Source: an uncultured Candidatus Rokubacteria bacterium
GTDB taxonomy: Bacteria > Methylomirabilota > Methylomirabilia > Rokubacteriales > CSP1-6
Direction of reading: 5' to 3'
Length of the DNA: 64,000 nucleotides
Assembly: GCA_963771355.1 (NCBI GenBank)
Contig: CAVYTA010000005.1
Location: 832,001-896,000 of the forward strand
Shown in pieces: positions 30,805 through 50,039 of the stretch. How positions within the stretch are numbered: position 1 is the stretch's first letter; each line of letters starts with the position of its first letter. The notes under the pieces are model-generated. The model was given only the letters and a program-made list of their open reading frames with translations, made no database searches and was not told the DNA's origin. Made by a program: the position numbers and the translations under genes.

Positions 30805-32142
30805 CTACGGTCGATATGGCTGCAGGTACTGGGCGAAGGCCTGGCGTCCGATTTGCTCGCCCTGGAGGATGCCGGCCACGGTTGAGCTCCGGAAGTGGAT
30901 CCCGGAGTACACGCGCGAGTCGCCATTCTCTTCCTGAGCCTCGCTGAAGCTCTTGAACGAGCGGGTGAGTCCCGCAAAGGGTGGGCCGCTGGTCATCGTG
31001 AAGCTGAGTTGATCGGTGCCGAAGAAGCGAGACATCACGACCGCGGCCGCCCCGCCGAGCACGCTGTGTGTCGATGGATACTCGGGGAGCGGCGGCGTAT
31101 TCATGAAGGTCTCCCAGGTGGGATCTCCCACCGTGGCATCGTTTCCATCCGCGTCGCCCGTCCGGATGGCCGTCACCGGCCGCCAGAAGTTGTAGAGGTA
31201 GCGTGTATCGGCCCCCGCGATGTATCCGTCGGCCATCGCGGCGTTCAGGAGGCCAAAGAGGCGGGCGTGCTCCCAGCGGTCGAGGGCGCGTGGACCGGCG
31301 ATGACGCGGGCGATCCGATTCCAGCCCTGGAGCGAGCCTTCAAACCAGAAGCGCGCGATGTCCGCCTGCGCGGCTGTCCGCACGGTGCTCTGCTTGCCGC
31401 CGAGCCGTTTCACCTCGTTGTAGTCGCGCGCGTAGGTGTCGCTGGTGAGCGCCGGGGGCGGCCGCAGCCGAAATTGCCAGGGCGCGCGCATCGTGAACGG
31501 CATCATCTGGCCCCACTGCGGGAGCATGGCCGGCCAGTTTCCGACCGCCAGGACTGCGTCGGCGATGGGCGGGTGGGCGGGCACGGGATTCGGATGCGGG
31601 CGCCACTGCCCGGGTTGTGTCCCCGGAGTGTACGCCACCTGCGCGGTGGCGCCGTCGGCCTTCCGAAGAGCCAGCATGGCCGCGGCCGCAGCTTGCCCCG
31701 CGGCAATTCCATCCTGCTTCGGGCGGCCGTGAGGAATTTCCGCGAGGGCGGCAGCATAGGCCGCCTCTGCCCTCTCCCGTCCCTTGGCCTGCTGCTCGGG
31801 TGTGCCGAAGCCGGTCAGCGCCCCGACCAGCACGTCGCGCATGGCGGCCGCCACGGCGGCCGCGGGGGTCGCCCCGGGCTCTGCTCGCGCGTCATACAGA
31901 TACGGTTCGTAGCGCCGATCGATCGCATTGAGGGCGTCGTGGACAGCCAGGTGCGCCATGGCGAGCCCGCGGGTCATCACGACGGGGTTCTGACCGCCCA
32001 GGGCAAGGACATCGATGGCGATCACGTTCCAGTCGGTGATCTCGTCGGCGCGAGCGGATACGATCCCCGCAAGAGCCATGAACCCCCAGAGCGTCAGGAT
32101 CACGAGGGCGAGTCTGAGGAGTCGACGTCGTCGTCCGTCCAT
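30805..32142 (-). CDS. secreted vanadium-dependent haloperoxidase / PAP2-superfamily protein (copy 2; PSTH)
   Basis: Signal peptide; ITDWN, RYLYNFWRP, EYPSTHS, SRVYSGIHF; GGAGG RBS. Confidence 0.87.
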   Translation of the reverse strand: MDGRRRRLLRLALVILTLWGFMALAGIVSARADEITDWNVIAIDVLALGGQNPVVMTRGLAMAHLAVHDALNAIDRRYEPYLYDARAEPGATPAAAVAAAMRDVLVGALTGFGTPEQQAKGRERAEAAYAAALAEIPHGRPKQDGIAAGQAAAAAMLALRKADGATAQVAYTPGTQPGQWRPHPNPVPAHPPIADAVLAVGNWPAMLPQWGQMMPFTMRAPWQFRLRPPPALTSDTYARDYNEVKRLGGKQSTVRTAAQADIARFWFEGSLQGWNRIARVIAGPRALDRWEHARLFGLLNAAMADGYIAGADTRYLYNFWRPVTAIRTGDADGNDATVGDPTWETFMNTPPLPEYPSTHSVLGGAAAVVMSRFFGTDQLSFTMTSGPPFAGLTRSFKSFSEAQEENGDSRVYSGIHFRSSTVAGILQGEQIGRQAFAQYLQPYRP

Positions 32143-32359: not shown

Positions 32360-32533
32360 TCAGATCTTCGTGAGCTGACCGGAGTGGATCAGCTCCACCA
32401 GCAGGTTCCACTCTTCCTTCTTGAGCACGGCGAGGTTGCCCGCCTCCCCGATACGGACCTCGTCACCGACCGCCTCGACGTCGGGGCACTGCCCGCAACC
32501 GGCTGGGCACAGGGTCACTTTGAACGTGTTCAT
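32360..32533 (-). CDS. small Cys-rich protein (57 aa), putative metal binder
   Basis: CPAGCGQCP motif; GGAGG RBS; follows MerR gene. Confidence 0.7.
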   Translation of the reverse strand: MNTFKVTLCPAGCGQCPDVEAVGDEVRIGEAGNLAVLKKEEWNLLVELIHSGQLTKI

Positions 32534-32538
32534 CTTGT

Positions 32539-32982
32539 TCACCTCCTCTCCGTTCTGACTGATAGACCTTTCTGACTGATAGACTTTCGATACAGGGACA
32601 GACCGCGGCCGGGCGATGGCGGGCTGGACCTCCACGACCGGAGCAATCCGCGGAGCTGCCCGCGAACCTGCTCCAGATCGGTCAGCACCCGCTCGATGTT
32701 CTCAAGCTTGACGTTGACGAGACGCAGGACGTGCGTGCACGGGGTCTGCCCGGAACGCTTGAGCGCCGCAATCTGCTTGATCTCATCCAGCCGGAAGCCG
32801 AGCCGCCGCGCCTGAGTGACAAACACGAGCAGCGCCAGCGTGTCGTCGGTGTAGACGCGATACCCAGCGGCCGTGCGGCGGGCGGGAGGTAAGATGCCGG
32901 CTCGCTCATAGAGGCGAAGCGCCTTGCGGCTGACGCCACTCTTCGCCGCTACCTCACCGATCAGCAGCCCGCTCCTCGCCAT
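32539..32982 (-). CDS. heavy-metal-responsive MerR family regulator (frameshift ~32622; 3' end approximate)
   Basis: IGEVA..GVSRKALRLYE, GYRVY, LGFRLDEI, PCTHV; AAVCPCIE lies in a shifted frame. Confidence 0.85.
   Translation of the reverse strand: MARSGLLIGEVAAKSGVSRKALRLYERAGILPPARRTAAGYRVYTDDTLALLVFVTQARRLGFRLDEIKQIAALKRSGQTPCTHVLRLVNVKLENIERVLTDLEQVRGQLRGLLRSWRSSPPSPGRGLSLYRKSISQKGLSVRTERR
32553..32584. repeat. tandem direct repeat, 15 nt unit at 17 nt period
   Basis: TTCTGACTGATAGAC at 32553 and 32570. Confidence 0.8.
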
Positions 32983-34480: not shown

Positions 34481-34786
34481 TCAGCGGAGCATCCAGGGCA
34501 TCACCCAGAGCGCTAGCGAGGCCGGCGTAGCGATCCAGAGCATGACGCGCTGCTGGTGCCCCCCAGCGCCTCGACGGTATGCGAAGTAGTGCCCGAGGGC
34601 GAGCGAGGCGATCGACACGGGAATCAGGACGATCTGCAGCTCCGCCATCCTGGCGGCGAGAGCTCCGCTCGCCACGCCCAGCACTCCGAGCGAGGCGGTC
34701 AGGAGCGTCGCCGGTCAGAGAACCCAGAGGAACGCCGAGCCAGCCGACAGCCCGCTTGACCATCCCACCTTGTGATCATTCAACAT
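34481..34786 (-). CDS. small MerT-like membrane protein with in-frame TGA (codon 24), candidate selenoprotein
   Basis: GAAAGGA RBS, ATG 34786; MLNDHKVGWSSGLSAGSAFLWVL-TGA(34717-34715)-PATLLTASLGVLGVASG continues in frame into ORF 34481..34684; three hydrophobic segments. Confidence 0.65.
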
Positions 34787-35450
34787 GTGCGATTCCTTTC
34801 TTGGTCCACGTGTCAGCGTCTGGGACTCGCCCACCGGGGGTGGGCTGGGCTATGCCGCGATAGAGGTACGAGCCCACCCGGGGTCCCGCAATGTAGCCCC
34901 GATTCACCTCCAAGGCTTCGAACCCACCCGATCGCAAGAGCCGGTCGATCGGTCGGTTCCAGTGGCAGCCACCCGCCACCCTCCGCCAGAGCGGCGTGAG
35001 CCGATCTTGCCACCGGACAACTGTCGGATCCGGCGAGCGTCCATGCTCGATGAAGATCAGCCGGCCCTGGGGCCGTAGCACACGACGCACCTCCTTGAGA
35101 GCCGCCACGGGATCCGGGATCGTGCAGAGCGTCCAGGTTGTAACGACGTCGTCCACCGACCCGGCCGCAAGCGGAATGGCCTCTGCCGGCCGGCAGAGGA
35201 ACTCCACCGGGAAGGCCGCGCCCTCCGCCCGCGAACGGGCCATCCGGAGCAGCTCCTCCGAGGGGTCCAGCGCGTAGAGCTTCAGCACCTCTCGGCTGTA
35301 GATCGGAAGGTTGAGTCCCGAGCCCACTCCGACCTCGAGGACCACACCTCTCGCCAGGGATACCCAGCGCGCCCGCTCGGGGCGGAGCGTACGGCTCCGC
35401 ATGGCGAGATCGGTGAGCGTCGGCAACACATGCTTGCGGTAGAGACCCAT
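34776..35450 (-). CDS. class I SAM-dependent methyltransferase
   Basis: VLEVGVGSG, AEAIP, TWTLCTIPD, RRVLRPQG, FIEHG, GGCHWNR. Confidence 0.9.
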   Translation of the reverse strand: MGLYRKHVLPTLTDLAMRSRTLRPERARWVSLARGVVLEVGVGSGLNLPIYSREVLKLYALDPSEELLRMARSRAEGAAFPVEFLCRPAEAIPLAAGSVDDVVTTWTLCTIPDPVAALKEVRRVLRPQGRLIFIEHGRSPDPTVVRWQDRLTPLWRRVAGGCHWNRPIDRLLRSGGFEALEVNRGYIAGPRVGSYLYRGIAQPTPGGRVPDADTWTKKGIAHVE

Positions 35451-35475
35451 CAGCCACCTCCTAGTAGCCAACCGC

Positions 35476-36181
35476 TCACCGGTGCATCTCCTGGCCCAAG
35501 GCTGCGACCAGCATCTGCACTACGGTGTCCTGCGCTACTCGCGGGTCGAACGGCTGCGGAGACGGATCCCAGTGGCGATGAACGGCCCAGAAGACCAGCG
35601 TCTCGATGATGAGCCGGGCGGCCACCATCGGGTCTGGGACCGGGCGCAACCGCCCCGCCCGGATGCCCCGCTCGAGGTATTGGGTCAGCAGGACCAGCAA
35701 CGCCTCGCGCCCCTGCGTGAACCAGAGCTTCGCGAGCGCCGGGTATTCAACCGCGCATCGGTCGACGAGCTTGATGCCGGTCCTGTTCCGCGCCATGGTT
35801 TCGTAGAGCTCACCCAGGATCCTGGTCAGCTCGGTCGCGTCCCCGGCGCCTCCGTGCCGCCTGAGTGCGACGAGGAGCGTCGGGCTCGCCGGCTGCTCGC
35901 GCGAGCCGCTGCTTGACCCACTGAAGAGTCCGGCCGCGGGCAGGCGTGCGGACCGGCAGACTTGGCGGCAGCGCGATCGGGCGCGGCGCGTCAGCGGAGC
36001 GGAGCACCGTGTCGAAGAGGGCGTCCTTGCTCTTCACGTAGAGGTAGACCGTACCCTTCGCCAGGCCCATCGCTTCGGCGATGTCACTCATCTGGGTGCG
36101 TCGGTACCCCTGGGCAATGAAGACACGCGTCGCAGCGTCGATGAGATCCTGAAAGCGCGAAGCGGGCACCCTGCGTGGCAC
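35476..36181 (-). CDS. TetR family regulator (frameshifted ~35810-35900)
   Basis: AATRVFIAQGY..TQMSDIAEAMGLAKGTVYLYVKSKDALF; C-terminal part in ORF 35476..35796. Confidence 0.8.
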
Positions 36182-36188
36182 GGCTCCG

Positions 36189-36216
36189 ACTTTACATGAC
36201 CGACCCGGTCAGTCAA
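36189..36216 (-). promoter_or_regulatory. promoter overlapped by a TetR-type palindromic operator
   Basis: TTGACT-16 nt-TAAAGT; palindrome TGACCGACC-C-GGTCAGTCA (36197-36215). Confidence 0.65.
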
Positions 36217-36261
36217 CTAGATTTTTCGAGGCCCCCGCTCGCCGGGGCTCTCTCGCCCTTC

Positions 36262-36693
36262 TCATCCGTCGCCCGCTCTGGCCGCCCGATCAGCGGCGAT
36301 GGTCTTCAACGAATCCTGTTCCAGCTTGAGCACGTGCTTGGCTACTACCCGGTAGGTCCACTGGTTGGGTGCGGTCTCACTGTTGAACTGCTCGTCGGTC
36401 AGCCCGATGAGTGAGCCGATCAGTCGCGCCCGCTCGGCGAGCCACTCGGCCAGGAGGCGTTGCATTGGCGACGCCGTGATCCGCGCCTCGTAGCGGCCCT
36501 CGAGGATCTGCGCGGTATGGATCTTTTCGTGATCGATATCGTTCGTGATGAGGGTCCAGACGTCCTTTCCTTGCGCGCAAGAGTGCGAGGATGGCGCCGC
36601 GAGCTCCCGATCGGACGCCTCGAGCAGGGCGTCCATGGTAGTCATCGTCTGCTCCATCAGCTCACGGATCGCACTGTGGACAGTCGCTGCCAT
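36262..36693 (-). CDS. DinB-like protein
   Basis: Helical; HEKIH and WTYRVVAKH DinB-type motifs; GGAGG RBS. Confidence 0.6.
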   Translation of the reverse strand: MAATVHSAIRELMEQTMTTMDALLEASDRELAAPSSHSCAQGKDVWTLITNDIDHEKIHTAQILEGRYEARITASPMQRLLAEWLAERARLIGSLIGLTDEQFNSETAPNQWTYRVVAKHVLKLEQDSLKTIAADRAARAGDG

Positions 36694-36741
36694 AGTTGCC
36701 TCCTGTCGGAGAGTCACCGCTTCGCCAGGGTCCAGAGGCCG

Positions 36742-37680
36742 TCATCGCCTGGTCGGTGCCTTTGCGTACGATACCGCGGCTCGACCCGGACCGCCGGCCG
36801 CTTCAAGCAGGTCCACGAAGGCTCGTCCGCTCGCCCCCAGCGTTCGGGCCTCGTTGTGGATCACGTGAAAGTGACGTCGAATGCGATGCCCACGAAGCCG
36901 GAGCGCGGATAGCTGCCCGGTTCGGAGCTCGCCGACAATCGCGTGCGACGACACGAACGCGACGCCCAAGCCCGCCATCACCGCCTGCTTGATCGCCTCG
37001 GTGTGGCCCAGCTCCATCGTGGGTCCGATTCGGGCGCCGACGTGCTGCAGCGCTCGCTCGGTGACCTGACGACTGGCCGACCCCTCCTCCCGGATGAGCA
37101 GCCGTTCCGCGCCGAGCAGGTTGGGGGCGATCTCGCGGCGTCGGCTCCAACGATGCCCCGGCGGCACAATGAGCACCAGCTCATCACAAATTCCCTTGGC
37201 CAGGCATTCCTCGCCGGGGGGGAACCCGTGTCCCCCGACCACGCCGAGATCGAGCTCGTTGGCGCGGATCTGTGCCTCGATGTCGGCTGAATTGGCGATC
37301 CGCACGCGCAGGGTGATCCCGGGGTACTGCCTCTGGAAGCGAGCGGCGAGGTGAGGGAGAACGTAGATCCCGGGAGTGGTACTGGCGCCGATCAGCAGCG
37401 AGCCGCGCTTCAGCCCCTCGAGCTCGGCGACGGTCTCGCGCGCGCTGGCAAGGGTCGCGAGGACACGTTGTGCGTGCTCCTCGAAGATTCGCCCGGCCTC
37501 GGTGAGAGCGACTCGCCGATTGAGCCGGTCGAAGAGGCGGGCGCCCAGCTCTCGTTCGAGCTCCGCTACGTGCTGAGAGAGGGCCGGTTGACTGAGGTGC
37601 AGAACCTCCGCCGCGGCCCGGAAGCTTCCGGCGCGCGCCACCGCGAGAAATACCTCGACCTGCCGGAGGGTGATCTGCAT
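36742..37680 (-). CDS. LysR family regulator (CysL/CmpR-like)
   Basis: SFRAAAEVLHLSQPALSQ, IGASTTPG, REEGSASR, TEAIKQAV.AGLG. Confidence 0.92.
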   Translation of the reverse strand: MQITLRQVEVFLAVARAGSFRAAAEVLHLSQPALSQHVAELERELGARLFDRLNRRVALTEAGRIFEEHAQRVLATLASARETVAELEGLKRGSLLIGASTTPGIYVLPHLAARFQRQYPGITLRVRIANSADIEAQIRANELDLGVVGGHGFPPGEECLAKGICDELVLIVPPGHRWSRRREIAPNLLGAERLLIREEGSASRQVTERALQHVGARIGPTMELGHTEAIKQAVMAGLGVAFVSSHAIVGELRTGQLSALRLRGHRIRRHFHVIHNEARTLGASGRAFVDLLEAAGGPGRAAVSYAKAPTRR

Positions 37681-37690
37681 AAGCCAGGCC

Positions 37691-37705
37691 TTATCGAACG
37701 GATAA
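37691..37705. promoter_or_regulatory. LysR-type T-N11-A palindromic box
   Basis: TTATC-GAACG-GATAA between divergent lysR and desaturase genes. Confidence 0.55.
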
Positions 37706-37751
37706 CAACACGCGATTGGAGCTTAATCAAGCCTGCCCTTAGCTTCGAGGT

Positions 37752-38580
37752 GTGGATCTCGTTGCGCAGGAGCCCACGGTTCGGGTGGCAATCTTCGCCG
37801 CGGCCTTGAGCTTGGTCGCGGCCGGCGAGATCGTGGCCCCGCGGCGCCCCCTCACCGTCCCCCGCCGGTCTCGATGGCCCAGCAACCTCGCCATCGTTCT
37901 TCTCAACACCCTCTTGGTGCGGGCGTTGCTCCCCGTGACCGCGGTGAGCATGGCCATGCTGGCGGAGGAGCGAGGTTGGGGACTCTTTCACGCGTCCGGA
38001 CCCTTACCCGCCTGGCTCGTCGTTCCGGTTACCGTGGTCTTCCTGGATCTCGCCATTTACCTCCAGCACGTCCTCTTTCATGCCGTGCCTATTCTGTGGC
38101 GGTTGCATCGCATGCATCACGCCGACCTGGACGTGGACGTGACCACGGGCGCGCGGTTCCATCCCCTCGAGATCGTGCTTTCGATGCTCCTGAAGTTCGG
38201 GGTGATCGCCGCGCTCGGAGCTCCGCCGCTCGCCGTCCTCGTGTTCGAGCTCCTTCTCAGTACCGGCTCCCTGTTCAACCATGGAAATCTTCGTCTGCCG
38301 CTTCCGAGCCGACGGAATCCTCCGCTGGATCGTCGTGACCCCCGATATGCATCGCGTCCACCACTCCGTTGCCCCGGGGGAGACCAATCGCAATTTCGGG
38401 TTCACGTTCTCCTGGTGGGATTGGATCGGCGGAACCTACCGGGCGCAGCCAGCCGGCGGCCACGCCCGAATGTTGCTCGGGATCGCTCAGTTCCGGGACG
38501 TGAGCGACCTACGCCTTGATCGCCTCTTGCTCCAGCCTCTTCTCGACGGCCCGGGGTCGTCGATAGGTACGGGCCGCTAG
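37752..38580 (+). CDS. sterol desaturase / fatty-acid hydroxylase family (frameshift ~38305)
   Basis: His boxes HVLFH, HRMHH, RFHP, HRVHH, NFG. Confidence 0.85.
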
Positions 38581-38611
38581 TGTTGGCCTGGTCCCGTCCC
38601 GACCGGTCGGG

Positions 38612-38735
38612 CAATCCCCCGATCCAAGACCTCCCCGGTCGCCTTGGGCACGAAGCGAACGCGTTCCGCCTGTGCCGCCTTGTTCTTCATGGCGAGCTCG
38701 ATGAGTGTCGGCACATACTTAGCGTAGACGCCCAT
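38612..38735 (-). pseudogene. 5' fragment of a methyltransferase paralogous to 34776..35450
   Basis: MGVYAKYVPTLIELAMKNKAAQAERVRFVPKATGEVL aligns with MGLYRKHVLPTLTDLAMRSRTLRPERARWVSLARGVVL and stops at the Gly-rich motif. Confidence 0.7.
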
Positions 38736-39856
38736 CCCCCTCCTCTCGCCGGGATGCTTCGTAGCGTTGTCTAATGTCGGCCTCGGTCACTGGATACGCC
38801 GGTACAAGATCGCCATCGAGATTGCGGCGGATCACTCCGCTGTCGATTGCTCGCTCCTCCGCTCTGGCCTTGTCGTCGCTCGACCATCCGCGCGTCACCG
38901 GTAAACGCGAGAACTTCCCATAGTGAACGAGCGATTCCACCCAGGCCACCTCTTCGCTTCCCAGCCGTTCTCTCGCGCACTGGAGAAGCTCCTCGGAGGC
39001 CATCTCCAGGCGGCGCAATACAAAGCGGCCCGGTATCGCGAGGTCCGCATACTGCTCGAAAGCGTCTCGCATACCGTCGGAGGATCGTGCCGCGCGTCGT
39101 GATCCGCCCCACCCCGGTATCCCGCCCCGCCTTCCGTCACTTGCTCCTGGCGATGAAACACCGCCAGGAATGATCCGTCCACGACGTAGAACTTCTGGTG
39201 GATCCGATCCCGCTCGAGAACCATGACGTCTATCCCGTGTTCTTCGATATCGCGCCTGACGATCTTCAGCCCATGGGCGATGACCTCGTCGAGATCGACC
39301 ACTCGACGGTAGGTCACTCCGGCACCGAGCCGGTCGCTCAAGGTCGCCCAGAACGACGCCACCTGCGGTAGTCGAGGGGACTTGCTGACCGCCACGATGG
39401 TCCGGCGGGCCTGCCCCATGGCCTCACAAATCAACTGCGCAAACTCATCCGTCGTCGCGGCGTCCCACTCGTGGTGGGCGAGCGCCGCTGCGAACGGTCG
39501 ATGAGCCGGCTGGCGACCGCGATGATCTCATCGCATATGCCGTCGCAGAATGTCCCGCCGGCATCGCCTCGTTAGTGCGCCATAGCAGCTCCGAGCTCAG
39601 GGACCGCCAGGCGATGTTCGGACTGATCGCATAGTACTGACGGCGTCGCAATCTCCGATACACACTGCCGACAAGACCCCGTTCCTGTAGCTGCCGCAGC
39701 GCACTGCCGACCTCGGTCGAGCACTCCGCTGAGCATCGACACGATCGCTCTCTTCGGCACCGGACCGCACGTCAACACGACCCCATACACTTGGGTCGCG
39801 GTCCGATCGAACCCGAGCTCGCTCATGAGCTGAAACAGCCGCACTCTATCGTCCAA
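38719..39856 (-). CDS. TrmB-like regulator (N-terminal HTH plus PLD-like domain), multiply frameshifted
   Basis: LMSELGF...QVYGVVL, YYAISP, GVTYRRVV, HQKFYVVD in successive frames. Confidence 0.5.
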
Positions 39857-39885
39857 CCCGTCCCCGCCTTTCGCCCCTGAGCATA

Positions 39886-41061
39886 TTACGAAGTGCTTCG
39901 AGCGCGGCTCGCCGCCCGTGGCCCAGAGCGCGGCCGCGGCGAGCGTGCCGATCACGCCCGCCGCGCCCCCCGCCGCGAAGCCCACGACATACCCATGCTG
40001 CGTGATGATGGGCCCCAGCCCAAAGGAACCGAGCGCGAACCCCAGATAGAGGGACGTGCTATAGCCCCCCATGACGAGCCCCCTGGTCGCGGGCGTCGCG
40101 GCGGACGCCAGGGCTACGCCAACGGCGACAAACGCGATCCCGCTGACCGCACCGAAGACGGCCACCAGCAGGAGCAAGGGCGTCTGGCCACCGACGTGAG
40201 GCAGAAGAATCGTCGCGACAGATGCGACCAGGACGCCAACGATTGCGCAGGGAGCGGGCCGCCCGGTGCGATCCACGAGCCAGCCCGCCGGCAACCGGGC
40301 CACCGTGTTGGCGAGCCGAGGACGAGGAATACGAAGCCGATGGCTGCGGGCGTGAGTCCTCGATCATGGCCGAGCAGCGGAAAGAAGCTGAAGACGACAC
40401 CCTGAATGAGAAGGCCGCTGATGGACAGGATCCACCCGGCCCAGACGGCGGCATTGCCTCTGATGTCGGTAAACGTTGCGCCGGATCGAGAGGTCGGAAG
40501 GGCGGGGGGCCGAATGGGGAGGACGAGGCCAACGATCAGAGCGAAGGCGACGCCGACGGCGCTCGTAACGAATGCGGCACGGTAGCCCCACCATTCGGCA
40601 GCGAGGCCGCCCAGGTACGGCCCGACTCCAATCGCTGCCATAGTGCGCCGTCGAGTACCACGCGAAGGCGTGTCCAGCCCGGCCCGGAGCCGCCGCGTCG
40701 CCCACCAACGAGAGGGCGCTCGGTGTGAACGCCGCCACTCCGAGACCCGCGAGGCCATAGATTGCCATCAGGGCGAGCGGATCTCGACCAGAGGGAGGAG
40801 CAGGGAGGTCCCGATGCTGACGATCATTCCTCCTAGCAGGAACCGGCGCCGGCCCCAAACGTCCGAGGCACGACCGAACGGGATGGAGCCGACCGCCGCC
40901 ACCATCATGTGCGCACCGAGGATCAGCCCGACCCCCGTGGCGGAGGCCCCGTGGGTGACGGCATAGAGGGGCAGGATCGGACCACGCATCTGCGCCGCGG
41001 CGTAGTGGAGGAACGTAAGCAGGCAAACGACGGCGAGAACGCTAAGAGGATTCGACGCCAA
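39886..41061 (-). CDS. MFS transporter, frameshifted
   Basis: PILPLYA, GRASDVWGRRR, GWLVDRTGR, TRGLVMGGY across frames. Confidence 0.8.
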
Positions 41062-41210
41062 GGCAAAGTCCCCCTGTCAACAGCTTTGAGGGACCTTACA
41101 GTCGCGGGCCTGGAGGCCCACGAACCCGTGGATCGAGGAGCGACCCACATCATTCCCTAACGTCGCCCTCGACAATAGTCTTCCATCGGACGTTCGTCAA
41201 GCTAAGCGGT

Positions 41211-41480
41211 CTATCGTTCTTCCGCTGCGTACGCCCCATACGCGAACGTCCGACGGTACGTGCGACCACAAGATCGAACCGTATCACCCGGCTACCGGGA
41301 GGCCACGTCATCGCAGGCGGGGCAGTCGCCCGGTGAGCGAGCGTCGCGGACCAGCGACCGGCGTCTTCTACACGCGCAGAGCGTGTCCCGCGCAGTGTGG
41401 GCACTCCACCAGGTCCCCCGACCGGGTTCCGTCGGGCAACGCGATCAGCGCGCCACAGTCGGGGCAGCCACTACCGGCAT
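41211..41480 (-). pseudogene. degenerate Cys-rich zinc-ribbon-like protein
   Basis: DCG..ECPHCAG..CPACDD..DTVRSCGRTYRRTFAYGAYA; C-terminal half matches 46173..46325. Confidence 0.6.
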
Positions 41481-41695
41481 CACCGAATCCCAAGAGCCGC
41501 TGCAGCCGTCGCGGTCAAGCCGACGACAACTCGTCGTCTACGGTGATGACGGGGACTGCATCGCCCGGTTCGCGTGATGAGCTCATCGCGCGTGCGGATC
41601 TCGGAACGTTTTGGCGTGAAGGCGAGGCATGAGAAAGAAACTCTTTCGCGCTGAAAGCTGTAGGTGAGAATGACGGTGATCTGCCGAGTCGCCAC
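41480..41695 (-). pseudogene. degenerate glutaredoxin/NrdH-like protein
   Basis: Fragments in shifting frames: AKEFLS, DELITRTG, VPVITVDDE, RLQRLLG; active-site region unreadable. Confidence 0.55.
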
Positions 41696-41696
41696 G

Positions 41697-42362
41697 CTAG
41701 TATCTCGTGAGCAAGCCCCCGAAGATCCAGTGGCCGATCTTGAACGCTTCCGTGACGGTGGCTCCAGAGCCTTGAGCGGCCGGGTTCGCGTCTCGCCAGG
41801 CCCTCAGATGTTCTTCCGACCGGAAGAAGTTGATCGTCGTTCAGAGCGAGTCGAAGGCCTTGCACGGCTCGTCACCGCGCGCTCCGAACCACACCATCAG
41901 CCCTTCGGCGGTCCCCACCACTCCGTCCGGCGTTGTGGCGATCTTCAGCGGTTCACCGCAGTGATGGCAGGACGACGTGATCTCGACGGGTTCTCCGACC
42001 ATCGGCGCGATGCCGAGTGCGTCGGTCGCGCAGCAGGCGTAGCGCTCGCGGGCGCCTGACAGACGCAGGCGAAACGGCGTTGCCGCGGCCGAGAACGGGT
42101 AGGCGACGTCGATCCGACCAGTGCGGATCCGGATCAGGTCGTCAGCATCGAGCGCGACGAGGGCATCGTGGACCGCCTCGGCCCGACGGTCAGGCGAGCC
42201 GGCGACGATGTCCTCGACGGGAATCGGCCCGCCTCGCTGCAGAAAGGTCCGGAGGATGAGCCGGACGAGAGGCTGCTGCCGAGCCGCCCGGCGAGCGGCC
42301 TGCCGCTCAAGCGGATCGAGGGCCTTCAATTCGTCAGCCGTCAGGATCACCAGGTTTGCCAC
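41697..42362 (-). CDS. merB: MerB-family organomercurial lyase homologue with in-frame TGA (codon 174), candidate selenoenzyme
   Basis: [14 protein letters not shown] (Cys96/Asp99 equivalents), SSCHHCG; FDSL-TGA(41843-41841)[15 protein letters not shown]...[18 protein letters not shown] matches the MerB SFCCHVHFFAS region. Confidence 0.85.
41811..41828 (-). promoter_or_regulatory. candidate bacterial SECIS hairpin
   Basis: 12 nt after TGA: UUCUUCC-GGUC-GGAAGAA, perfect 7-bp stem with G-first GGUC loop. Confidence 0.7.
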
Positions 42363-42389
42363 GATCGGCCTCCCCTCTCACTCGAACCG

Positions 42390-42420
42390 AGCGTAGAGTC
42401 TGTAGTAGCTCCAGACTCAA
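42390..42420 (-). promoter_or_regulatory. MerR-type promoter/operator (19-bp spacer) driving merB
   Basis: TTGAGT-19 nt-TACGCT with GAGTCTG...CAGACTC dyad. Confidence 0.8.
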
Positions 42421-42446
42421 GGATTATTTCAGAAGGGGGCAAGGGC

Positions 42447-42879
42447 ATGGCGGACACGGGGCGGATCGCCATCGGCGCGCTGTCGAAGCGGACCGGTACC
42501 AATATCGAGACCATCCGCTACTACGAGCGCGTCAGGTTGCTGCCCGCTCCGGCTCGGAGCTCGGGAGGCTACCGCCTGTATGGGACTGGGCACCTGAAGC
42601 GGCTGAGCTTCATCCGCCGGGCGCGCGCGCTCGGGTTCTCGCTCGCCGAGGTGCGAACCCTGCTGGCTCTTGCAGATCAGCGACGGCGCCCGTGCGCCGA
42701 GGTGCGGGTGGTGGCGGCGGCTCACCTTGATGACGTGAAAGGAAGATCGCGACTTGAAGGCGATGGAACATGCGCTGGCAGAGACCATCGCGCGCTGTGA
42801 GGCGGGTAGCGGCTCGCACTGTCCGGTGATCGACGCGCTATGTACCACCCGAGGCTACCCAGCCCAGAAGCGCGGATAG
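42447..42879 (+). CDS. MerR family metal regulator (three-Cys MerR/CadR/PbrR type), frameshift ~42745
   Basis: IETIRYYER, GGYRLY, FIRRARALGFSL, PCAEVR, RCEAGSGSHCPVIDAL. Confidence 0.85.
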
Positions 42880-43195
42880 AGCTCCCGGAGTTGCCAAGAC
42901 CAACCGGACGTCTGGGCGGCGGCGCTCGGTCAGATAGCGCTCCCGCACCGTCGGATCGCTCAGCGGCGTGCCGCTGGCGCAGCACATGATGGAGCGCGCG
43001 TCGTCGGTATGCGGCAGGCCCACGGCGTGGCCCAGCTCGTGGCCGCCCACCTCGACCAGGAGCGGCTCCGACTCCGGGTGGACGCCCCCAAGAGGCAGCA
43101 TCAGGTCGATGCGCACCGGGCGCTTGATCGCCCCGAGATCGTCGTGTTCGAGGTAGGTCCGGTTGGGCACCTGAGGAAACCTCTCAGGGACGAGA
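42838..43195 (-). pseudogene. 3' fragment of a matrixin/metzincin zinc metalloprotease
   Basis: HELGHAVGLPH plus SIM Met-turn; 5' part replaced by the czcA fragment. Confidence 0.65.
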
Positions 43196-44334
43196 TTCTC
43201 CTCTCGGGCACCCGTGCCCAGATTGCCATCAAGCTCTTCGGTGCCGATCTCGGCATCTTGAGAACGAAGGCGGGCGAGATCCGCGACGCGATGGCCAGGG
43301 TCGCCGGAATCGTGGACCTGCTCGTCGAGCCTCAGGTCGGAGTGCCCCAGGTCCAGATCAATCTGGACCGGCGCGCCGCGGCGGCGGTCGGGCTTCGCGC
43401 GGAAGATCTCACGGAGACGGTGGAGACCGCCTTCAGCGGCCACGTCGTCTCCCAGGTGCTGCAGGAACAGCGAAGCTACGACATCCTCGTGCGCCTGGAC
43501 GACACCGCCCGGGAATCGGTCGGACGATCCGCCGAACCCTCATCGACACCCCCAGCGGTGCTCGCGTCCCCATCGGCCAGCCCGCCGGAGGTCCGGGTCG
43601 ATGCGGGACCGAACACCATCAACCGGGATAACGTGCAGCGGCGCATCATCGTGCAGGCCAACGTCACGGGCCGGGACCTCGGCAGCGTGATCGCCGAGGT
43701 CCGGCAGGCGATCGCCGCGCGGGTCGCGCTGCCGCAGGGATACTTCGTCCAGTACGGCGGGCAGTTCGAGTCGCAGGAGCGGGCGGTTCGGCAGATCGCG
43801 CTGCTTTCTGCCGCGGCCATCGGAGGGATCTTCCTCCTCCTCTACCTGGCGCTCCGTTCCAGCCGTTTGGCCACGCTCGTGATGGCCAACTTGCCGCTCG
43901 CGCTGATCGGCGGGGTCGTCATGGTGTTCGTGGCGGGCGGCACGCTGTCGATCGCCTCCCTCATCGGATTCATCGCGCTCTTCGGCATCGCGACCCGGAA
44001 CGGCATCATGCTCATCACCCACTACCGCCACCTCATGGAGGAGGAGGGCGTGGGCTTTCGGGACGCCATCGTTCAGGGATCGATGGAGCGGCTGAGCCCC
44101 ATCCTCATGACGGCGCTCGTCACCGGTATCGGCCTCGTTCCGTTGGCGCTCGGCGCCGGTCAACCGGGGAAGAGATCCAGCAGCCCATGGCTATCGTGAT
44201 CCTGGGCGGGATTGCCACCTCGACGGCGCTCAACATGATCGTCATTCCTGCGCTCTACCGTGAAGTTCGGACGCGCGGAGGCGCGGCGGACGCGCGAGGA
44301 GCCGGCCGTAGGTACGGCCGCTCTCAGCGGCTAG
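43196..44334 (+). pseudogene. C-terminal fragment of a CzcA/CusA heavy-metal RND pump
   Basis: LSGTRAQIAIKLFG, GPNTINR, YGGQFE, GIATRNGI, ERLSPILMT; N-terminal ~two thirds absent; frameshifts. Confidence 0.8.
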
Positions 44335-44363
44335 CTGCCGGCTCATCCGGGCAGCACATCACC

Positions 44364-44555
44364 ATGCTGCTGCGGAGCATAGTCGCGCTTGGCGTCGTGG
44401 CTACCATCGCGGTGCTGATCGCGTGGGTGCTTGTTCGGCTGATGTGGTCGCCGCCCTCGTCTACCGCCGCTCGGGCAGCGCTGGTCTGCACTATTCTCAT
44501 CCTGACCGCTATTGGCCTGTGGGTCTTCTTCGTGCTGCCCGCATACTGGGACTGA
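44364..44555 (+). CDS. small 2-TM hypothetical protein
   Basis: Two hydrophobic segments; weak RBS. Confidence 0.45.
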   Translation: MLLRSIVALGVVATIAVLIAWVLVRLMWSPPSSTAARAALVCTILILTAIGLWVFFVLPAYWD

Positions 44556-44691
44556 TCTCGGAGGGCGGATTGAGCCGGTCACACGGAGCGACATATCCAC
44601 GCTGTGCGCCGCCGGGAGCGAGGAGCCCGCGCGCGGGGCGACCGCGGTCGCCGGCGATTGATCTGCTGGACCCTCCGCGAGGAGATTCCTG

Positions 44692-44860
44692 ATGGATAGC
44701 GTCTCCTTTGAGATGGTACTCATCGCGCTCGGCACCCTGGCCAATGGGTTCTTCTTCGAGTCCGAGTTCGCCCTGGTATCTCGCGCATCAGCCGGCTGGC
44801 CCAGCTGCGCGAGCAGGCCGTGCGGGGCGCGGCTGCCGCGATGCGCCTCAAGGAGAAGCC
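44692..44860 (+). pseudogene. 5' fragment of a hemolysin/CNNM (DUF21) protein
   Basis: GGAG RBS; LANGFFFESEFALVS motif, then disrupted. Confidence 0.6.
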
Positions 44861-44861
44861 C

Positions 44862-44973
44862 CTGCTCGTTCGTAGAGGCGAAGCGCCTTGCGGCTGGCGC
44901 CGTTCTTCGCCGCCATCTCACCGATCAGCAGCCCGTTTCTCGCCATGACTGGAGGTAAGTCCTGCCCCGCGGG
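44862..44973 (-). pseudogene. truncated duplicate of the merR at 32982 (first ~29 codons plus half promoter)
   Basis: MARNGLLIGEMAAKNGASRKALRLYERAG vs MARSGLLIGEVAAKSGVSRKALRLYERAG; upstream GGGGCAGG..TTACC remnant. Confidence 0.8.
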
Positions 44974-45069
44974 ACTCCGAGCGCTCCGTCTCGAAGCAGG
45001 AAGTAGCAGAAACACAGCACATGCTGCCCGGAGGCGGCAAACGACCTCTTGAAAGGAGCGCACTTCCTC

Positions 45070-45399
45070 ATGGCTTCGGTGATCAACTCGATCGTGCTCT
45101 TCCTGGTGGCGGGCCTCTGCGAGATTGGGGGCGGCTACCTCGTGTGGCAGTGGTGGCGTAACGGGAAGTCGGCGTTCATCGGTGCTCTAGGAGCCGCGGT
45201 GCTCGTCCTCTACGGCATCGTGCCGACATACCAGCCGCAGCACTTCGGGCGTGTCTACGCGGCCTACGGCGGCGTTTTCGTCGTCCTCTCGGTCATCTGG
45301 GGTTGGGGCGTGGATGGCATCGCGCCAGACCGCTTCGACATCCTCGGCGGGCTCATCTGCTTGATCGGCGTCGCGGTGATCATGTACTGGCCCCGGTAG
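45070..45399 (+). CDS. YnfA (UPF0060) family membrane protein
   Basis: [33 protein letters not shown]. Confidence 0.9.
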
Positions 45400-45440
45400 G
45401 CCGCCCGGGAGGCTGCGATCAGCGCGGGCATGCCTACCTC

Positions 45441-45764
45441 CTAGCGCGTCGGCGGCGGCGCTCCCGAAGGCGGAGAACCCTTCGTCGACGCGCGGAACCC
45501 GAGGCGATCTATAGCCTCGATCATCTGCGGGACCGCCACCTGTGCGGGGTCGAAGGTCACGACCGCCTCCTTCGCCCTCAGGCTCACATCTGCCCGACTC
45601 AGACCCCTCAGCCCTTCCAGGGCCTTCTTCACTCCAACGGGGCAGGCGCCTCAGGTCATTCCGTCCACCGTGAGGACCACCGTGGACGTCGCGGCCTACA
45701 ACGCGGTGGATGCAACGACCAGCAGGCCCAGTAGCACGGCGACGACCGACACCCATCGATTCAC
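45441..45764 (-). CDS. merP: MerP-like periplasmic HMA protein with GMT-TGA-GAC (UxxC), candidate selenoprotein; also a TAG at codon 23
   Basis: AGGAGG RBS, GTG 45764; signal peptide ..TAL-TAG(45698)-AATSTVVLTVDGMT-TGA(45653-45651)-GACPVGVKKALEGL..AVVTFDP..GF. Confidence 0.75.
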
Positions 45765-46163
45765 TGCGTTCCTCCTATGGTGTGGCCGGTGTGAGACTGA
45801 TCAGCGGTCATCACGTACGCCAGCAGATCGGAGGTGAACTCGGGGAAATGATCGAGCACGATGGTCGTAGCGACGACCAGGCTCGCCAGGATCAGCAGCC
45901 CGAGCGTGATGCGACTGCCTGCCGTCCGGCAGGCTGGCCAGCGCGTCACAGCGCCGCCGCTCCCGCCGGTACAGGACGAAGCCGGCGACGATGCCGATGA
46001 TCCCGGCCGGGACCAGCAGCCAACGGTACTGCATCGTCGTCGCCATGAACGCGCCACTCCCAAGCCCAAGCACGATCACTGCGAGAGGGAGAAGACAGCA
46101 GAGCGAGGCGAGCGCCGCCCCCATCCACGCGACCAAGCCAGCAGCGAGCGCTGCACGTTTCAT
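45761..46163 (-). CDS. merT: MerT-family mercury transporter (frameshift ~45930)
   Basis: AALASLCCLLPL..LGLGSGA, YRWLL, YRRERRRC; GTGA overlap with merP. Confidence 0.75.
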
Positions 46164-46172
46164 AGTGTCCGC

Positions 46173-46325
46173 CTACCCTTCTGCTGGGGCGTACGCCCCA
46201 TACTCGAACGTCAGACGGTACGTGCGACCGCAGCATCGAACCGTATCTCCCGGCTTCACGTCGTCGGGGAGGGTCAGTACGTCATCGCACTCGGGGCAAC
46301 TCACCCGACAAGCGAGCGTCGCTCT
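46173..46325 (-). pseudogene. 3' half of Cys-rich zinc-ribbon-like protein
   Basis: RVSCPECDD..DTVRCCGRTYRLTFEYGAY; begins directly at the promoter without its 5' half. Confidence 0.6.
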
Positions 46326-46336
46326 CACCTGAGCTG

Positions 46337-46367
46337 AGGGTAGAGTCTGTAGTAACTCCAGACTCAA
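46337..46367 (-). promoter_or_regulatory. second MerR-type promoter/operator (19-bp spacer) driving merT-merP
   Basis: TTGAGT-19 nt-TACCCT with GAGTCTG...CAGACTC dyad. Confidence 0.8.
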
Positions 46368-46392: not shown

Positions 46393-46798
46393 ATGGCGGA
46401 CACGGGGCGGATCGCCATCGGCGCGCTGTCGAAGCACACGGGGACGAACATCGAGACCATCCGCTACTACGAGCGCGTCGGGTTGCTGCCCGCTCCGGCT
46501 CGGAGCTCGGGAGGCTACCGCCTGTATGGGACGGGGCACCTGAAGCGGCTGAGCTTCATCCGCCGGGCCCGCGCTCGGGTTCTCGCTCGCCGAGGTGCGA
46601 ACGCTGCTGACTCTGGCAGATCGAGCGACGGCGCCCGTGCGCCGAGGTGCGGGTGGTGGTGGCGGCGCACCTTGATGACGTGAAAGGGAAGATCGCCGAC
46701 TTGAAGGCGATGGGGCATGCGCTGGCAGAGACCATCGCGCGCTGCGAGGCGGGGAGCGGCTCCCGCACTGTCCGGTGATCGACGCGCTCGATGCTTAG
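46393..46798 (+). CDS. MerR family regulator, near-identical paralogue of 42447..42879 (several frameshifts)
   Basis: MADTGRIAIGALSK.TGTNIETIRYYER...CPVIDALDA. Confidence 0.8.
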
Positions 46799-46813
46799 GG
46801 GCCAGCTCGTCAC

Positions 46814-47444
46814 CTAGGGGATCGTTAGCGGACGCAGGGCGCGCCTCGCTTCGCCGATAATCCTGATGGCCGAGGTAGCGAACATTGCGGCGGATCAGGA
46901 GACCCACCGCGATGTCCGGCCACGCGGAGCCCGTGAGGGCGACCCCGCCCGCCGCCATCAGCACTCCGGCATTGGCCATCACATCATTCCGGGAGCAGAG
47001 CCACGCGGAGCGCATGTTGATGTCGTCACCCCGACGCCGCCAGAGCAGGAACAGACAGATCACGTTGGCGGCCAACGCGAGGAGGCCGATGCCCCCCATG
47101 AGCCCGGCGGCCGGGACGATACCTCGGGCGATTTTCAGGATTGCTTCCAGGAGGACGCCGAGGCCGAAGATTGCCATCACGGTCCCTTTGAGCAGCGCCG
47201 CGCGCGCCTGCCAGACGCTACCCCGGCTCACGACATAGAGGCTGAAGCCGTACACGAGCGCGTCCCCGAGCATGTCCACCGAGTCCGCCAGGAGGGCCGT
47301 CGAGCCGGCGAGAAGCCCCGCACCAAACTCCACCAGGAACATAGCGGCATTGATACACAGGACGATCTGGAGCACCCGGCGCTGCCGGGCGGGAACATCA
47401 ACCATCACCTCACAGCAGTCTTTCACGGCACATTCATTATGCAT
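46814..47444 (-). CDS. cation diffusion facilitator (short Co/Zn/Cd/Pb type), frameshift ~46893
   Basis: KDCCE, STALLADSVDMLGD, NMRSAWLCSRND, WPD. Confidence 0.85.
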
Positions 47445-47550
47445 GAGGGGCCCGGCTCGGAGCCACGCTTGCGGCGATGCGACCCGACGGCGGGACCGTC
47501 CCGCCTTCGATCGGAGAGCATGGAGTGCTGTGCGGGCACGTCTTCGTGTT

Positions 47551-48749
47551 TCAACTGGATGGCGTGTTTCCTAGTGCTCTCCGCCCGGAGGAGGAAGCTG
47601 CCCTCGGTGACCACCCTCTCCCCGGGGTGCAGCCCGGACACGACCGCATAGAACTCGCCCACCGGGACCCAGGCGTACCGTGCGCTGGATGAACTCCCCT
47701 CCTCGTCCTGGCGGCCACGAAGACCACCTGGCGCCCGCCGAGCGTCTGGACGGCCGCCTTCGGCACCAGCCGCCGTCGCCCGCCGCGGTCCGAAGACCAC
47801 GGTCACGAACATCCCCAGCCGAAGCCGCCCTCCGGGTTCGGCACCTCGACCCGGACCTTGGCCGTCCGCGCCTGGGGGTCGACCCGCGGGTCGATATAGG
47901 TCACGCGGCCCCGGAGCGCGTGCCGGGGTAGGCCGGCGTCTGATGGCGGCCTCGGAGCCGACGCCGACGCCGCGAAGTCCTGCTCGTAGAGATCGCCGAC
48001 CACCCAGACCTCGAGAGGTCGGTCACGACGAAGAGCTCCTGCCCATGCCGACCACCTGGCCGGGATTCGCGGACCGGCCGGTAATGACGCCGCCGATCGG
48101 CGCCGGTACCGTCACTTGGAGATGACCTGAGTGGACCTCGGAGGCCTCGACCTGTTCTGCCGTAGCCCGAGCAGCAGCAGCCGCTGGCGCGCGGCCGCGA
48201 CCTCGGTCGCGTGGCTGGCATGGACCGCCGTCACCTCCTCGAGCTCCTGACGGCTCGCCGCGCCGATCGCCGCGAGCGCCTGCGTGCGTTCGCGCTTCTG
48301 GTGGTCGGCCTCCAGCATGGCCCCCATGGAGAGATACTTCGTCTGGGCGTCGGCGAGCTCCGTGCTGAAGACGTGGCGAGCGGCTGCCGCGCCCCACCGC
48401 CGCGCCCAGCTCGACATGCACCTTGCGGACGATGCCGGCCGCGACGGGCGTGACTTTGGTCTCCCGGTAGGCGTTCGCCACCACACTGCCGGGCACGATG
48501 ACCTCCATTACGTGGAGCCGGCCGTCACCGGCGCGGTCTTGATCCCGGCTCGCGTTACCGCCTCGGGGTTCAGCACGACTCGACGTCCGCGGCGGCCGCC
48601 GGCGATGGCCGGCCGTCACGGGAGCCGCCGCCGGGGGGCGGCGGCCGATCGACACCCGAGCGGCGCGCCACCACAGTGCCGGCAGCCCCGAGCGCCGTGA
48701 AGCCGAGCGCGCCGCCAACCCAGAGAAGCGCGGCGACCGATCGGCTCAC
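47551..48749 (-). CDS. RND efflux periplasmic adaptor (CusB/CzcB-like), heavily frameshifted
   Basis: N-terminal TM; VPAPIGG, GRVTYIDPRVDPQARTAKVRVEVPN, GLHPGERVVTEGSFLL in shifting frames. Confidence 0.75.
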
Positions 48750-50039
48750 GATGCTTCTCCGATGGCTCGCTCGATCTCCACCGCGGCGTCATAGACCTGC
48801 TTGAGCACCTCCGTATACCCGTCTCGACCTCGATGAGCGGCGCTGCTCGGCGATGACGTCGAGCAGCGGACCGCGGCCGAGCCGTAGGCTCTGGCGGACG
48901 ACGTCGAGATTCTGCCGCGCCACGTCCCGCACGCCGCGCTCGTAGAGTCTCGAGCGAGCGCCGGGCCGCCTCGTACTGGGTGAAGGCCGCGGCGACCTCC
49001 TGGCGCACCATGAGCTCGAGCGAATTCCCGCCGCCGCTCCGGCCGCTCGCGCCTCGGCCTGCGCCGCCGCGATGTTGCCCTCGTTGCGGTTGCGCACGGG
49101 CAGGGTGATCGTGACCCCGCCGCCGACAATAATGGAAAGACGTCCTGGATCGGGCGCGTCGCCCCGCGGTCGTCAGGCCGCTCAGGTCGAAGCCGAAGTC
49201 CTGGCGCTGGTAGCCGACGTTGACGCTGGCGTCCCAGCGCCCCTCGGCCTCTTCCTTCCGGATCCGCGCCCGCGCCATCGCCGACCTCGGCCCGGGCCGC
49301 GCGGAGGTCGGGCCGGTCGGCGAGCGCCTGCGCTCGAGGCCCTCGTCGCGGTCGATCCGCACCGCCGGCGGCGTCCAGCTCGCCCCGCCGACTCGAGCGG
49401 CTCTCCGGCGGCAAGCCCGGCGAGCGCCTGAGCTGGAGCGTGCAGCACCTCGACCCGGCTCCAGGACTGCTGGGCTGGCCTCCAGGCGATTGACCTCGAC
49501 GAGCAGCAGGTTCTCGTCGAGCGGGGGCGCCGCCCCGCGGCGCACGCGCTCCCCGACGAGGCCGAGCGCCTGCCGGTTCGCCTGCGAGCAGCTCTCGCGT
49601 GACGGCAGGTTGCGCCGCGCGGCCAGCAGCTCCCCGGCCTTGAGCCGGATCTCGGCCCGCAGCCGCCGCTCCCGCTCGGCGAGCTGCGCCTGCTTGACCC
49701 CAGCTCGCGCTCGGCCACCCGACGCGGCCCTCCTTCCGGCCGTTCAGGTCGAGCGGCAGCGTCACGCCCACCGATGAGGTTGTTGTCCGGGCCCGGTGAC
49801 GCTTTCTGGCCCGCGAGGTCGAGCATCGGGTTCGGGCGAAGCCCCGCCTGCTGGACGCGCGCCGCGCGCCGCCTCCACCTCGGCGCGCGCCGCCTGCAGC
49901 TCGGGGTGTTCCGCGAGCGCCCGCGCGACGAGCTCGTCGACCGTGACTCGCGCCGCGGTCGGCGGCGCTCTGGGCCGACGCCACGACGGCGATCGCCACC
50001 AGGAGCAGCAGGACGGGCTCCCGCCGAGCGTCGCATCAC
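48746..50039 (-). CDS. TolC/CzcC-type outer-membrane factor, heavily frameshifted
   Basis: QAGLRPNP, VTLPLD..GRKEGR, RPDLRAA, RNRNEGNI, LLDVIAEQR. Confidence 0.75.

Follow-up and report, generated by a model that had tools for sequence, protein, structure and literature searches.

Selenocysteine (Sec, U) forms of MerB-like (SaoL), MerP-like, MerT-like and glutaredoxin (Grx) proteins have already been listed (bioRxiv 2022.07.06.499078; PMC9312934; PMC2398784; PMC13188914), and the phylum Methylomirabilota was reported to hold the largest predicted bacterial selenoproteome, with 63 predicted selenoproteins in one metagenome-assembled genome (PMC13188914). Surveys of MerB screen for Cys159, and Table 1 of one of them lists a single Rokubacteria genome with MerB (PMC8261052). 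Here, we describe a 64,000-nt stretch (the window; GCA_963771355.1, contig CAVYTA010000005.1, positions 832,001 to 896,000) from an uncultured Candidatus Rokubacteria bacterium. We propose that the window holds a split copy of a Sec operon conserved in Methylomirabilota, which would likely detoxify mercury compounds through a protein relay (rough probability of this reading, 0.6). The operon is a variant form of the mer operon, for which single Sec families were already known. The first-pass annotation, made from the sequence of the window, had suspected novelty for a MerR-linked cluster using Sec at several steps, and literature searches indeed found no paper describing this operon.

The genome holding the window (G000; 5.5 Mb, 8 contigs, 99.8% complete) contains all four genes of the Sec machinery. 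By genome search, selC was located at C7:111447, adjoining selA and selB, and selD on C4. Within the same order, selA was present in 155 of 183 genomes, and all counts out of 183 refer to this set. Locus counts refer to 66 contigs from 57 genomes, which were picked by hits and hence are not frequencies. Two of the genomes (G008 and G149) are unpublished, and counts are also given without them.

Three minus-strand genes of the window contain in-frame TGA codons, at 34717-34715 (a MerT-like membrane protein), 41843-41841 (merB) and 45653-45651 (merP). All three were found as first annotated, each with an AGGA/GGAG-type ribosome-binding site ahead of its start and family-typical sequence beyond the TGA. 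Among 98 listed merB matches outside G000 (E<=1e-17, spanning residue 174), 95 carried one TGA (93 of 96 without G008 and G149), and the other three had Cys at that position; 43 weaker matches lie beyond these 98, and weak MerB matches (E about 1e-8 to 1e-12) were left out of the count. TGA was also found at U174 in all fetched merB loci. For the 34717 gene, TGA was conserved in 5/5 other genomes and in 50/50 loci covering the site (52 loci examined), and the merP relatives comprised 30 distinct Sec-bearing sequences (21 UxxU, 5 CxxU, 3 UxxC and 1 SxxU). Because the Sec machinery is present and the codon is conserved across relatives, the three TGAs very likely encode selenocysteine, as had been supposed. 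The further claim that each TGA falls on the Cys site of its family is supported, with the limit that no close Cys homologue of the 34717 gene was found. Small contigs of RNA run X19 covered the 34717 gene and merB, which indicates presence only, not transcription.

A crude whole-genome scan of G000 found a Cys-type motif in 36 of 200 TGA candidates; the scan missed all three target genes, so this is a lower bound. Many of the 36 resemble Prx, Trx, DsbA, AhpD/CMD, rhodanese, UGSC and SelW-type selenoproteins (labels assigned by eye). One genome (G102), which lacks a selA match and encodes a Cys-MerB, was considered as a case of Sec loss but was not used, as other TGA genes are present in it.

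In relatives, a conserved operon was found in which merR is divergent from merB (Sec), a glutaredoxin gene (UxxC), a double Zn-ribbon gene, merF or merE, a merT-like gene (CC) and merP (UxxU). Sec forms of merB, grx and merP occurred on one contig in 13 of the 57 genomes, and at least two of the three in 31 (12 and 29, respectively, without G149 and G008); merB and grx were together in 24 (22 without the unpublished genomes). Additionally, Sec was present in the Zn-ribbon in 12 genomes, a MerF gene was found in 16 and a MerE-like gene in 5, and some loci had 6-7 Sec residues spread over five proteins. MerF scored over the NF033565 cut-off and MerE over that of PF05052. The operon merT was fused to a Sec-HMA domain in four genomes. 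Other families of the phylum also hold the operon, with varied gene order and the same content. A MerR gene accompanied a core gene in 23 of the 57 genomes, and an ECF sigma factor with its anti-sigma factor was present in 4. A MerR-controlled cluster with Sec at several steps, as first annotated, is therefore confirmed by relatives for merB and merP, but the three-gene make-up given for it had overlooked the UxxC glutaredoxin and the double Zn-ribbon.

The double Zn-ribbon carries 1-3 Sec residues (CPNU, CPGU) in the 12 order genomes and in Methylomirabilales (loci such as L102:6582-6851, L103, L106 and L263-L272), and it is apparently an unlisted selenoprotein family. The 119-family table of PMC13188914 contains neither this Sec Zn-ribbon nor the CxxxxU flavoproteins and the LUP membrane protein described below.

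The window holds two partial copies of this operon, A and B, with the following features.

42447..42879, plus strand: MerR-family regulator 1, with Cys at three MerR-like positions; the frame is shifted near 42746, probably by a read error
42390..42420, minus strand: MerR-type promoter A, -35 TTGAGT, 19-bp dyad spacer, -10 TACGCT
41697..42362, minus strand: MerB-like protein, 221 aa, C111/D114/U174 corresponding to MerB Cys96/Asp99/Cys159 and C132 to Cys117; TGA at 41843-41841
41481..41695, minus strand: glutaredoxin, copy A (UxxC in relatives); many 1-nt deletions that also remove the Sec codon, likely long-read errors
41211..41480, minus strand: double Zn-ribbon (LysW-like), copy A, disrupted in the assembly by small deletions
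46393..46817, plus strand: MerR-family regulator 2, frameshifted in the assembly
46337..46367, minus strand: MerR-type promoter B, 19-bp spacer
46173..46322, minus strand: second half of a double Zn-ribbon, copy B, joined directly to promoter B
45761..46163, minus strand: MerT-like transporter with CC pair, copy B; 4-nt insertion near 45935 causing a frameshift
45441..45764, minus strand: MerP-like UxxC protein of the NF041115 family, copy B, a pseudogene; TAG at 45698-45696, TGA at 45653-45651

Copy A (42879 to 41211) comprises merR1, the promoter, merB, grx and the ribbon gene. Copy B comprises merR2, the promoter, half a ribbon gene, merT and merP, with merB, grx and the first half of the ribbon deleted. 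The two copies are 92.6% identical over 470 bp, a divergence that refuted an assembly duplication. Thus, merB and merP, which had been taken as one set, come from two diverged copies, although both were rightly placed under MerR-type promoters, namely the 19-bp-spacer promoters at 42420-42390 and 46367-46337. A 19-bp dyad spacer was described for MerR and PbrR promoters (PMC3431237); our sigma-70 scan permits spacers of 16-18 bp only and so misses such promoters. The regulators have three Cys at MerR-like positions, and the full-length ones scored best on the Hg-MerR model TIGR02051 in 3/3 tested. The operator dyad was CTGTAG-N3-CTACAG.

In copy A, grx and the ribbon gene show about 30 small deletions relative to relatives. 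A short-read contig of run X2 spanning 41329-41698 differed at 2 letters and contained 29 gaps, and further contigs skipped 41292-41671 entirely. We infer that the deletions reflect a failed long-read consensus over two alleles, so that copy A (merR, merB, grx and ribbon) is probably intact; for grx and the ribbon gene, this is based on one contig summary and on relatives. Copy A is without an intact linked importer. Copy B is decayed by the deletion, the frameshift in merT, where 4 nt are inserted ahead of merP, and the in-frame TAG in merP, 15 codons ahead of the TGA. A short-read contig from another sample and run showed 0 differences over 45632-46276; because this independent contig is identical there, the TAG and the merT frameshift are real and the copy was broken in life. 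The window merP is a pseudogene.

Both copies are flanked by a metal-resistance island with many frameshifts: a CDF transporter (PF01545) and RND efflux pieces (CusA/CzcA-, CusB- and TolC-like by eye) lie at 43009-44199 (plus strand) and 46515-53286 (minus strand). A third MerR-family gene followed by a gene for a 60-aa Cys-rich protein is found at 32360-32982 (minus strand), and the same pair follows merP in the G084 and G120 loci. Farther away, at 28365-32142 (minus strand), two vanadium haloperoxidase-like genes (VCPO_N/PAP2) surround a gene encoding a 349-aa protein with a CxxCH motif.

In bacteria, Sec insertion depends on a hairpin (SECIS) just 3' of the UGA, and the rule used here was a hairpin with a G in its loop, 16-37 nt after the UGA. 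The window has one candidate per TGA gene.

34675..34692, minus strand: candidate SECIS core of the 34717 gene, with its loop about 28 nt downstream of the UGA; z -2.84
41812..41827, minus strand: candidate SECIS of merB, 6-bp stem, GGUC loop 19 nt after the UGA, codons fixed across 37 sequences
45610..45624, minus strand: candidate SECIS of merP, positioned such that both UGAs of UxxU relatives could use it

When hairpin counts were compared with those of synonymously recoded controls, hairpins were clearly in excess for merP (27/28 versus 5.3 expected, maximum 11), grx (26/26 versus 3.9), the CxxxxU flavoprotein (19/19 versus 1.9) and the 34717 gene (29/31 versus 15.3, maximum 21). For merB, the test was non-discriminating (35/37 versus 31.3), because the peptide nearly forces the stem. 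The expected SECIS elements were therefore borne out for merP, grx and the 34717 gene, but not by this test for merB, in which the codons of the GGUC loop are nevertheless fixed (Arg 35/35, Ser 37/37). The same loop occurs in E. coli fdhF. Single-sequence folding past the TGA was no better than that of shuffled sequences for merB (z 0.22) and merP (z -0.14), and it supported the 34717 hairpin alone (z -2.84).

The read-through MerB-like protein scored 102.8 bits against PF03243 (cut-off 27). In an alignment to solved MerB, U174 falls on Cys159, C111 on Cys96 and D114 on Asp99; C111, D114 and C132 were invariant across 30 sequences, and residue 174 was U or C. Moreover, the AlphaFold model (pLDDT 87) had MerB2 and MerB as its top Foldseek matches (TM 0.64-0.72). 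Alignment and model together place the active-site residues Cys96/Asp99/Cys117/Cys159 and the MerB fold in this protein, with Sec standing for Cys159. A merB match of some kind was found in 134 of the 183 order genomes. In the protein database, 603 entries matched the merB alignment at E<=1e-20. Among the top 120, 116 terminate at 169-175 aa, confirming the earlier remark that stop-to-stop calling shortens these genes; standard annotation cuts the genes of the Sec operon at the TGA. Five weak-match MerB paralogs in the fetched loci belong to a second, more canonical family, and the two that were read carry Cys. This Cys-MerB lies in or beside some Sec operons (L100:9648, L102:10134, L142 and L144) and scored 189.9 against the NF009710 cut-off of 193.

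The MerP-like protein scored over the NF041115 cut-off (102.6 versus 95), and an intact relative reached 113.5. In L025 (QHVJ01000423.1), a contig of a bin labelled Acidobacteria, there is a copy that shares about 83% identity with copy B, is likewise UxxC and is interrupted ahead of the HMA domain; it is possibly misbinned or transferred. In L263 and L271 (G236 and G237), the strand opposite to the operon encodes, about 2 kb away, another UxxU HMA protein that has a signal peptide.

As to reductases, no merA lies in the window, as first annotated, and none over the cut-off was found in G000. Canonical MerA, with its C-terminal Cys pair, was found in none of the fetched operon loci. Two reductase types that lack this pair are linked to the operon in some loci. 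The first is related to GbsMerA, a tested Hg(II) reductase without a C-terminal Cys pair whose Y437F variant is inactive (PMC10587081). In G239, the operon runs directly into a final flavoprotein gene whose product matches GbsMerA (8k40, E 1e-141). A GbsMerA-type gene comes after a Sec-HMA gene in G122 (two instances) and in G140, and another lies about 1.3 kb from merP in G212. The second type is a CxxxxU flavoprotein with an F/Y-P-T tail and a GGUC-loop hairpin (L102:5177-6511 in G160, L117 and L120), which was present in 18 of 21 f2 genomes and abuts the Sec-mer cluster in G160, G161 and G177. G000 itself encodes an unlinked class I flavoprotein disulfide reductase (C6:100973-102304, minus strand; L016) of the CxxxxU form, with TGA at the second active-site Cys, a His-Pro-Ser tail and no CC pair. 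Its relatives were found in 54 of the 183 genomes, with TGA in most and in none of genus g12. The two CxxxxU subfamilies (G160-type and C6:100973) are 36% identical. A flavoprotein tree kept 14 of 21 rows and left out the f2 CxxxxU rows, on which it is uninformative.

Based on these gene contents, we infer the inducer, the substrate, the glutaredoxin hand-over and every chemical step of a possible pathway. Hg(II) bound to the three-Cys MerR would switch on the 19-bp-spacer promoter, and Hg(II) captured in the periplasm by a UxxU MerP would go to importers of the MerT, MerF and MerE types. Sec-MerB would cleave the Hg-C bond of R-Hg, after which the UxxC glutaredoxin would remove Hg(II) from MerB and deliver it either to the Cys/Sec-rich Zn-ribbon protein or to a flavoprotein reductase without a C-terminal Cys pair. 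This hand-over would stand in for NmerA and the C-terminal Cys pair of MerA; a glutaredoxin-dependent MerA-like enzyme is cited in PMC8261052. Mercury is, on balance, the substrate that we favor for the operon. A bolder version appears rather doubtful, namely that Rokubacteria and their relatives possess a complete selenium-based mercury pathway, in which Sec-MerP, demethylation by Sec-MerB and a Sec-Grx/Sec-Zn-ribbon relay would feed the CxxxxU flavoprotein as the first Sec-dependent mercuric reductase.

Several observations weigh against mercury detoxification. The MerB-like protein is 22-25% identical to solved MerBs and falls under all three NCBIfam cut-offs tried, including the MerB equivalogs NF009710 (76.9 versus 193) and NF033555 (56.4 versus 200) as well as NF040728; many merB(U) genes are solitary, without the operon; and the merB hairpin test was uninformative, as noted above. 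The regulators reached 126-134 bits against a TIGR02051 cut-off of 150.85, with CueR and CadR/PbrR close behind. Canonical MerA was detected in 5 of the 183 genomes (8 candidates scored per genome), GbsMerA-type reductases in 38, mostly unlinked, and G000 has neither. In 15 of the 18 f2 genomes, no cluster gene was found within 1.5 kb of the CxxxxU flavoprotein, and most operon-type (G160-type) CxxxxU reductases carry Phe at the position of the Tyr that GbsMerA requires, an argument against their reducing Hg; import of Hg without a reductase would be costly. Finally, the lineage is rich in Sec everywhere, as the 36 motif-bearing candidates among 200 indicate, and therefore Sec use need not be Hg-specific. 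Given the known selenoproteome of Methylomirabilota, the Sec density by itself is less surprising than the first-pass annotation rated it.

The strongest competitor, which we consider a real but minor possibility, is that mer parts make up a module for soft metals or organometal(loid)s in general (Cd, Pb, Cu, Ag or organo-lead, -tin or -arsenic), in which the MerB-like protein would be a metal binder or a broad organometal lyase. The close CueR and CadR/PbrR scores of the regulators, the rarity of canonical MerA and the position of the window copies amid a CDF transporter and RND efflux pieces (RND labels from sequence) fit this explanation. The operator dyad is presumably also nearer to CadR/PbrR operators than to the Tn21 mer dyad. 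In addition, MerB was reported to bind other metals (bioRxiv 2022.07.06.499078; PMC8261052). Against a soft-metal module, MerF, MerE-like, MerT-like, MerP-like and MerB-like genes co-occur, the full MerB signature (C96/D99/C117/C159) is kept, Hg-MerR was the best match of every regulator tested, and GbsMerA-type reductases are linked to some operons.

Less probable, and in our view unlikely, is capture of mercury without reduction, in which the Sec sites of MerP, MerB, Grx and the Zn-ribbon would form a stoichiometric Hg(II) sink and no Hg(0) would be made. Selenols have a higher affinity for Hg, most loci and G000 are without a linked reductase, and the 6-7 Sec residues over five proteins in some loci would suit a sink. 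About half of the merB genomes in one survey lacked merA (PMC8261052). However, different lineages have two unrelated types of reductase joined to the cluster, and a sink that consumes Sec proteins would be costly.

The first-pass annotation had joined merB, merP and the 34717 gene into one working Sec-mer system of the window. The 34717 gene instead lies in a unit of its own.

34481..34786, minus strand: MerT-like three-helix membrane protein with a lone Sec (LUP), TGA at 34717-34715; separate unit
34776..35450, minus strand: class I SAM methyltransferase, a constant neighbour of the 34717 gene, whose start it overlaps
35476..36181, minus strand: TetR-like regulator (labelled from sequence), first gene of the TetR-methyltransferase-MerT-like unit

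The gene adjoins a methyltransferase gene in 48 of the 52 loci, usually behind TetR, and stands with merB or grx in 0/52. No MerR operator was found at it, the whole-genome operator search giving 2 matches, at copies A and B. A frameshift in the TetR-like gene near 35901 is missing from the contigs of two runs. The 34717 protein is weakly MerT-like (NF033560, E 4e-5; hhalign to a MerT-HMA fusion, 93.6%), and its farthest relatives are MerT and MerT-HMA fusions, which supports remote homology. It has no Pfam match, including PF02411, reached 23.9 bits against an NF033560 cut-off of 130, and carries a lone Sec in place of a Cys pair in the first transmembrane helix (TM1). None of 73 database homologues had Cys at the Sec site, and only distant MerTs had CC pairs. 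Judged by the distance to the following Gly, we would align the U with the second Cys of the MerT pair, although MAFFT was ambiguous by three residues. The gene context indicates that this is an independent MerT-like protein under putative TetR control with a methyltransferase, outside the merR operon. In one metagenome locus (L188:2173), a Sec-HMA fragment (SxxU) has recombined into a cupin gene adjoining a 34717-type gene.

A single three-gene system is accordingly largely refuted and now very improbable. It would explain the conserved TGAs of three genes within 11 kb, the MerT-like character of the 34717 protein and the adjoining genes at L188, but the neighbourhoods and the operator search just given speak against the three genes as one unit, and the TAG in merP and the frameshift in merT are both present in the independent contig. 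Least of all is there room for the TGAs being sequencing errors or true stops in pseudogenes: despite the indel-rich region and the decayed copy B, TGA stands at the same site in about 100 genomes and 50 loci, the exceptions encode Cys, and the sequence past it is conserved in a genome with Sec machinery, which rules out sequencing error.

If mercury is indeed the substrate and the operon is active, there would be hidden demethylation potential in soils. Compared with surveys based on Cys159, the Sec-MerB clade comprises 95 full-span matches within a single order and, in the database, 603 proteins, the top ones nearly all truncated. Should the complete Sec pathway prove true, an abundant soil lineage would be a large uncounted source of methylmercury breakdown. 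The operon also offers a testable answer to the question of merB without merA, namely a glutaredoxin relay to reductases without a C-terminal Cys pair. It poses a chemical puzzle as well, as a selenol holds Hg very tightly and release would be hard.

Compared with known systems, the window MerB resembles SaoL of the SAO system (NF040728; Haft & Gwadz, bioRxiv 10.1101/2022.07.06.499078) in being MerB-like, in having Sec at the Cys159 position and in belonging to a multi-selenoprotein metal locus. SaoL, as described there, carries a CU motif and belongs to an ABC-import locus of nine genes found in anaerobes, whereas the window MerB has an LU motif, mer transporters and MerR control. Membership in SaoL was rejected based on its NF040728 score (53.6 versus a cut-off of 140), LU instead of CU, and mer-type rather than Sao neighbours. 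The UxxU metal-binding selenoprotein NF041115 appears in Table 1 of PMC13188914 and, as a putative mercuric reductase UxxU, in PMC9312934; the MerP-like protein passes its cut-off, and the window copy is UxxC with a TAG in the signal peptide. Like the Sec-MerT families (the C/SxxU form of PF02411, CU-motif MerT and the MerT/CopZ fusion NF045683), the 34717 protein has Sec in the first membrane helix, but unlike them it has a lone LUP, no other Cys, no Pfam match, and TetR and methyltransferase partners. The G239 reductase shares with GbsMerA (PDB 8k40) the CxxxxC-D motif, the C-terminal Tyr and the absence of a CC pair; GbsMerA is absent from G000, and the CxxxxU reductases of G160, G161 and G177 and of G000 C6:100973 are other subfamilies. 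With Tn21/Tn501-type mer operons, the Sec operon shares a divergent three-Cys MerR, the 19-bp-spacer promoter, the MerP, MerT, MerF and MerE types, and C96/D99/C117 of MerB. Unlike those operons, it is without canonical MerA, uses an ECF sigma/anti-sigma pair for MerR in some lineages and usually has merB first; it carries Sec at Cys159 of MerB and in MerP (UxxU), with a UxxC glutaredoxin and a double Zn-ribbon as extra components.

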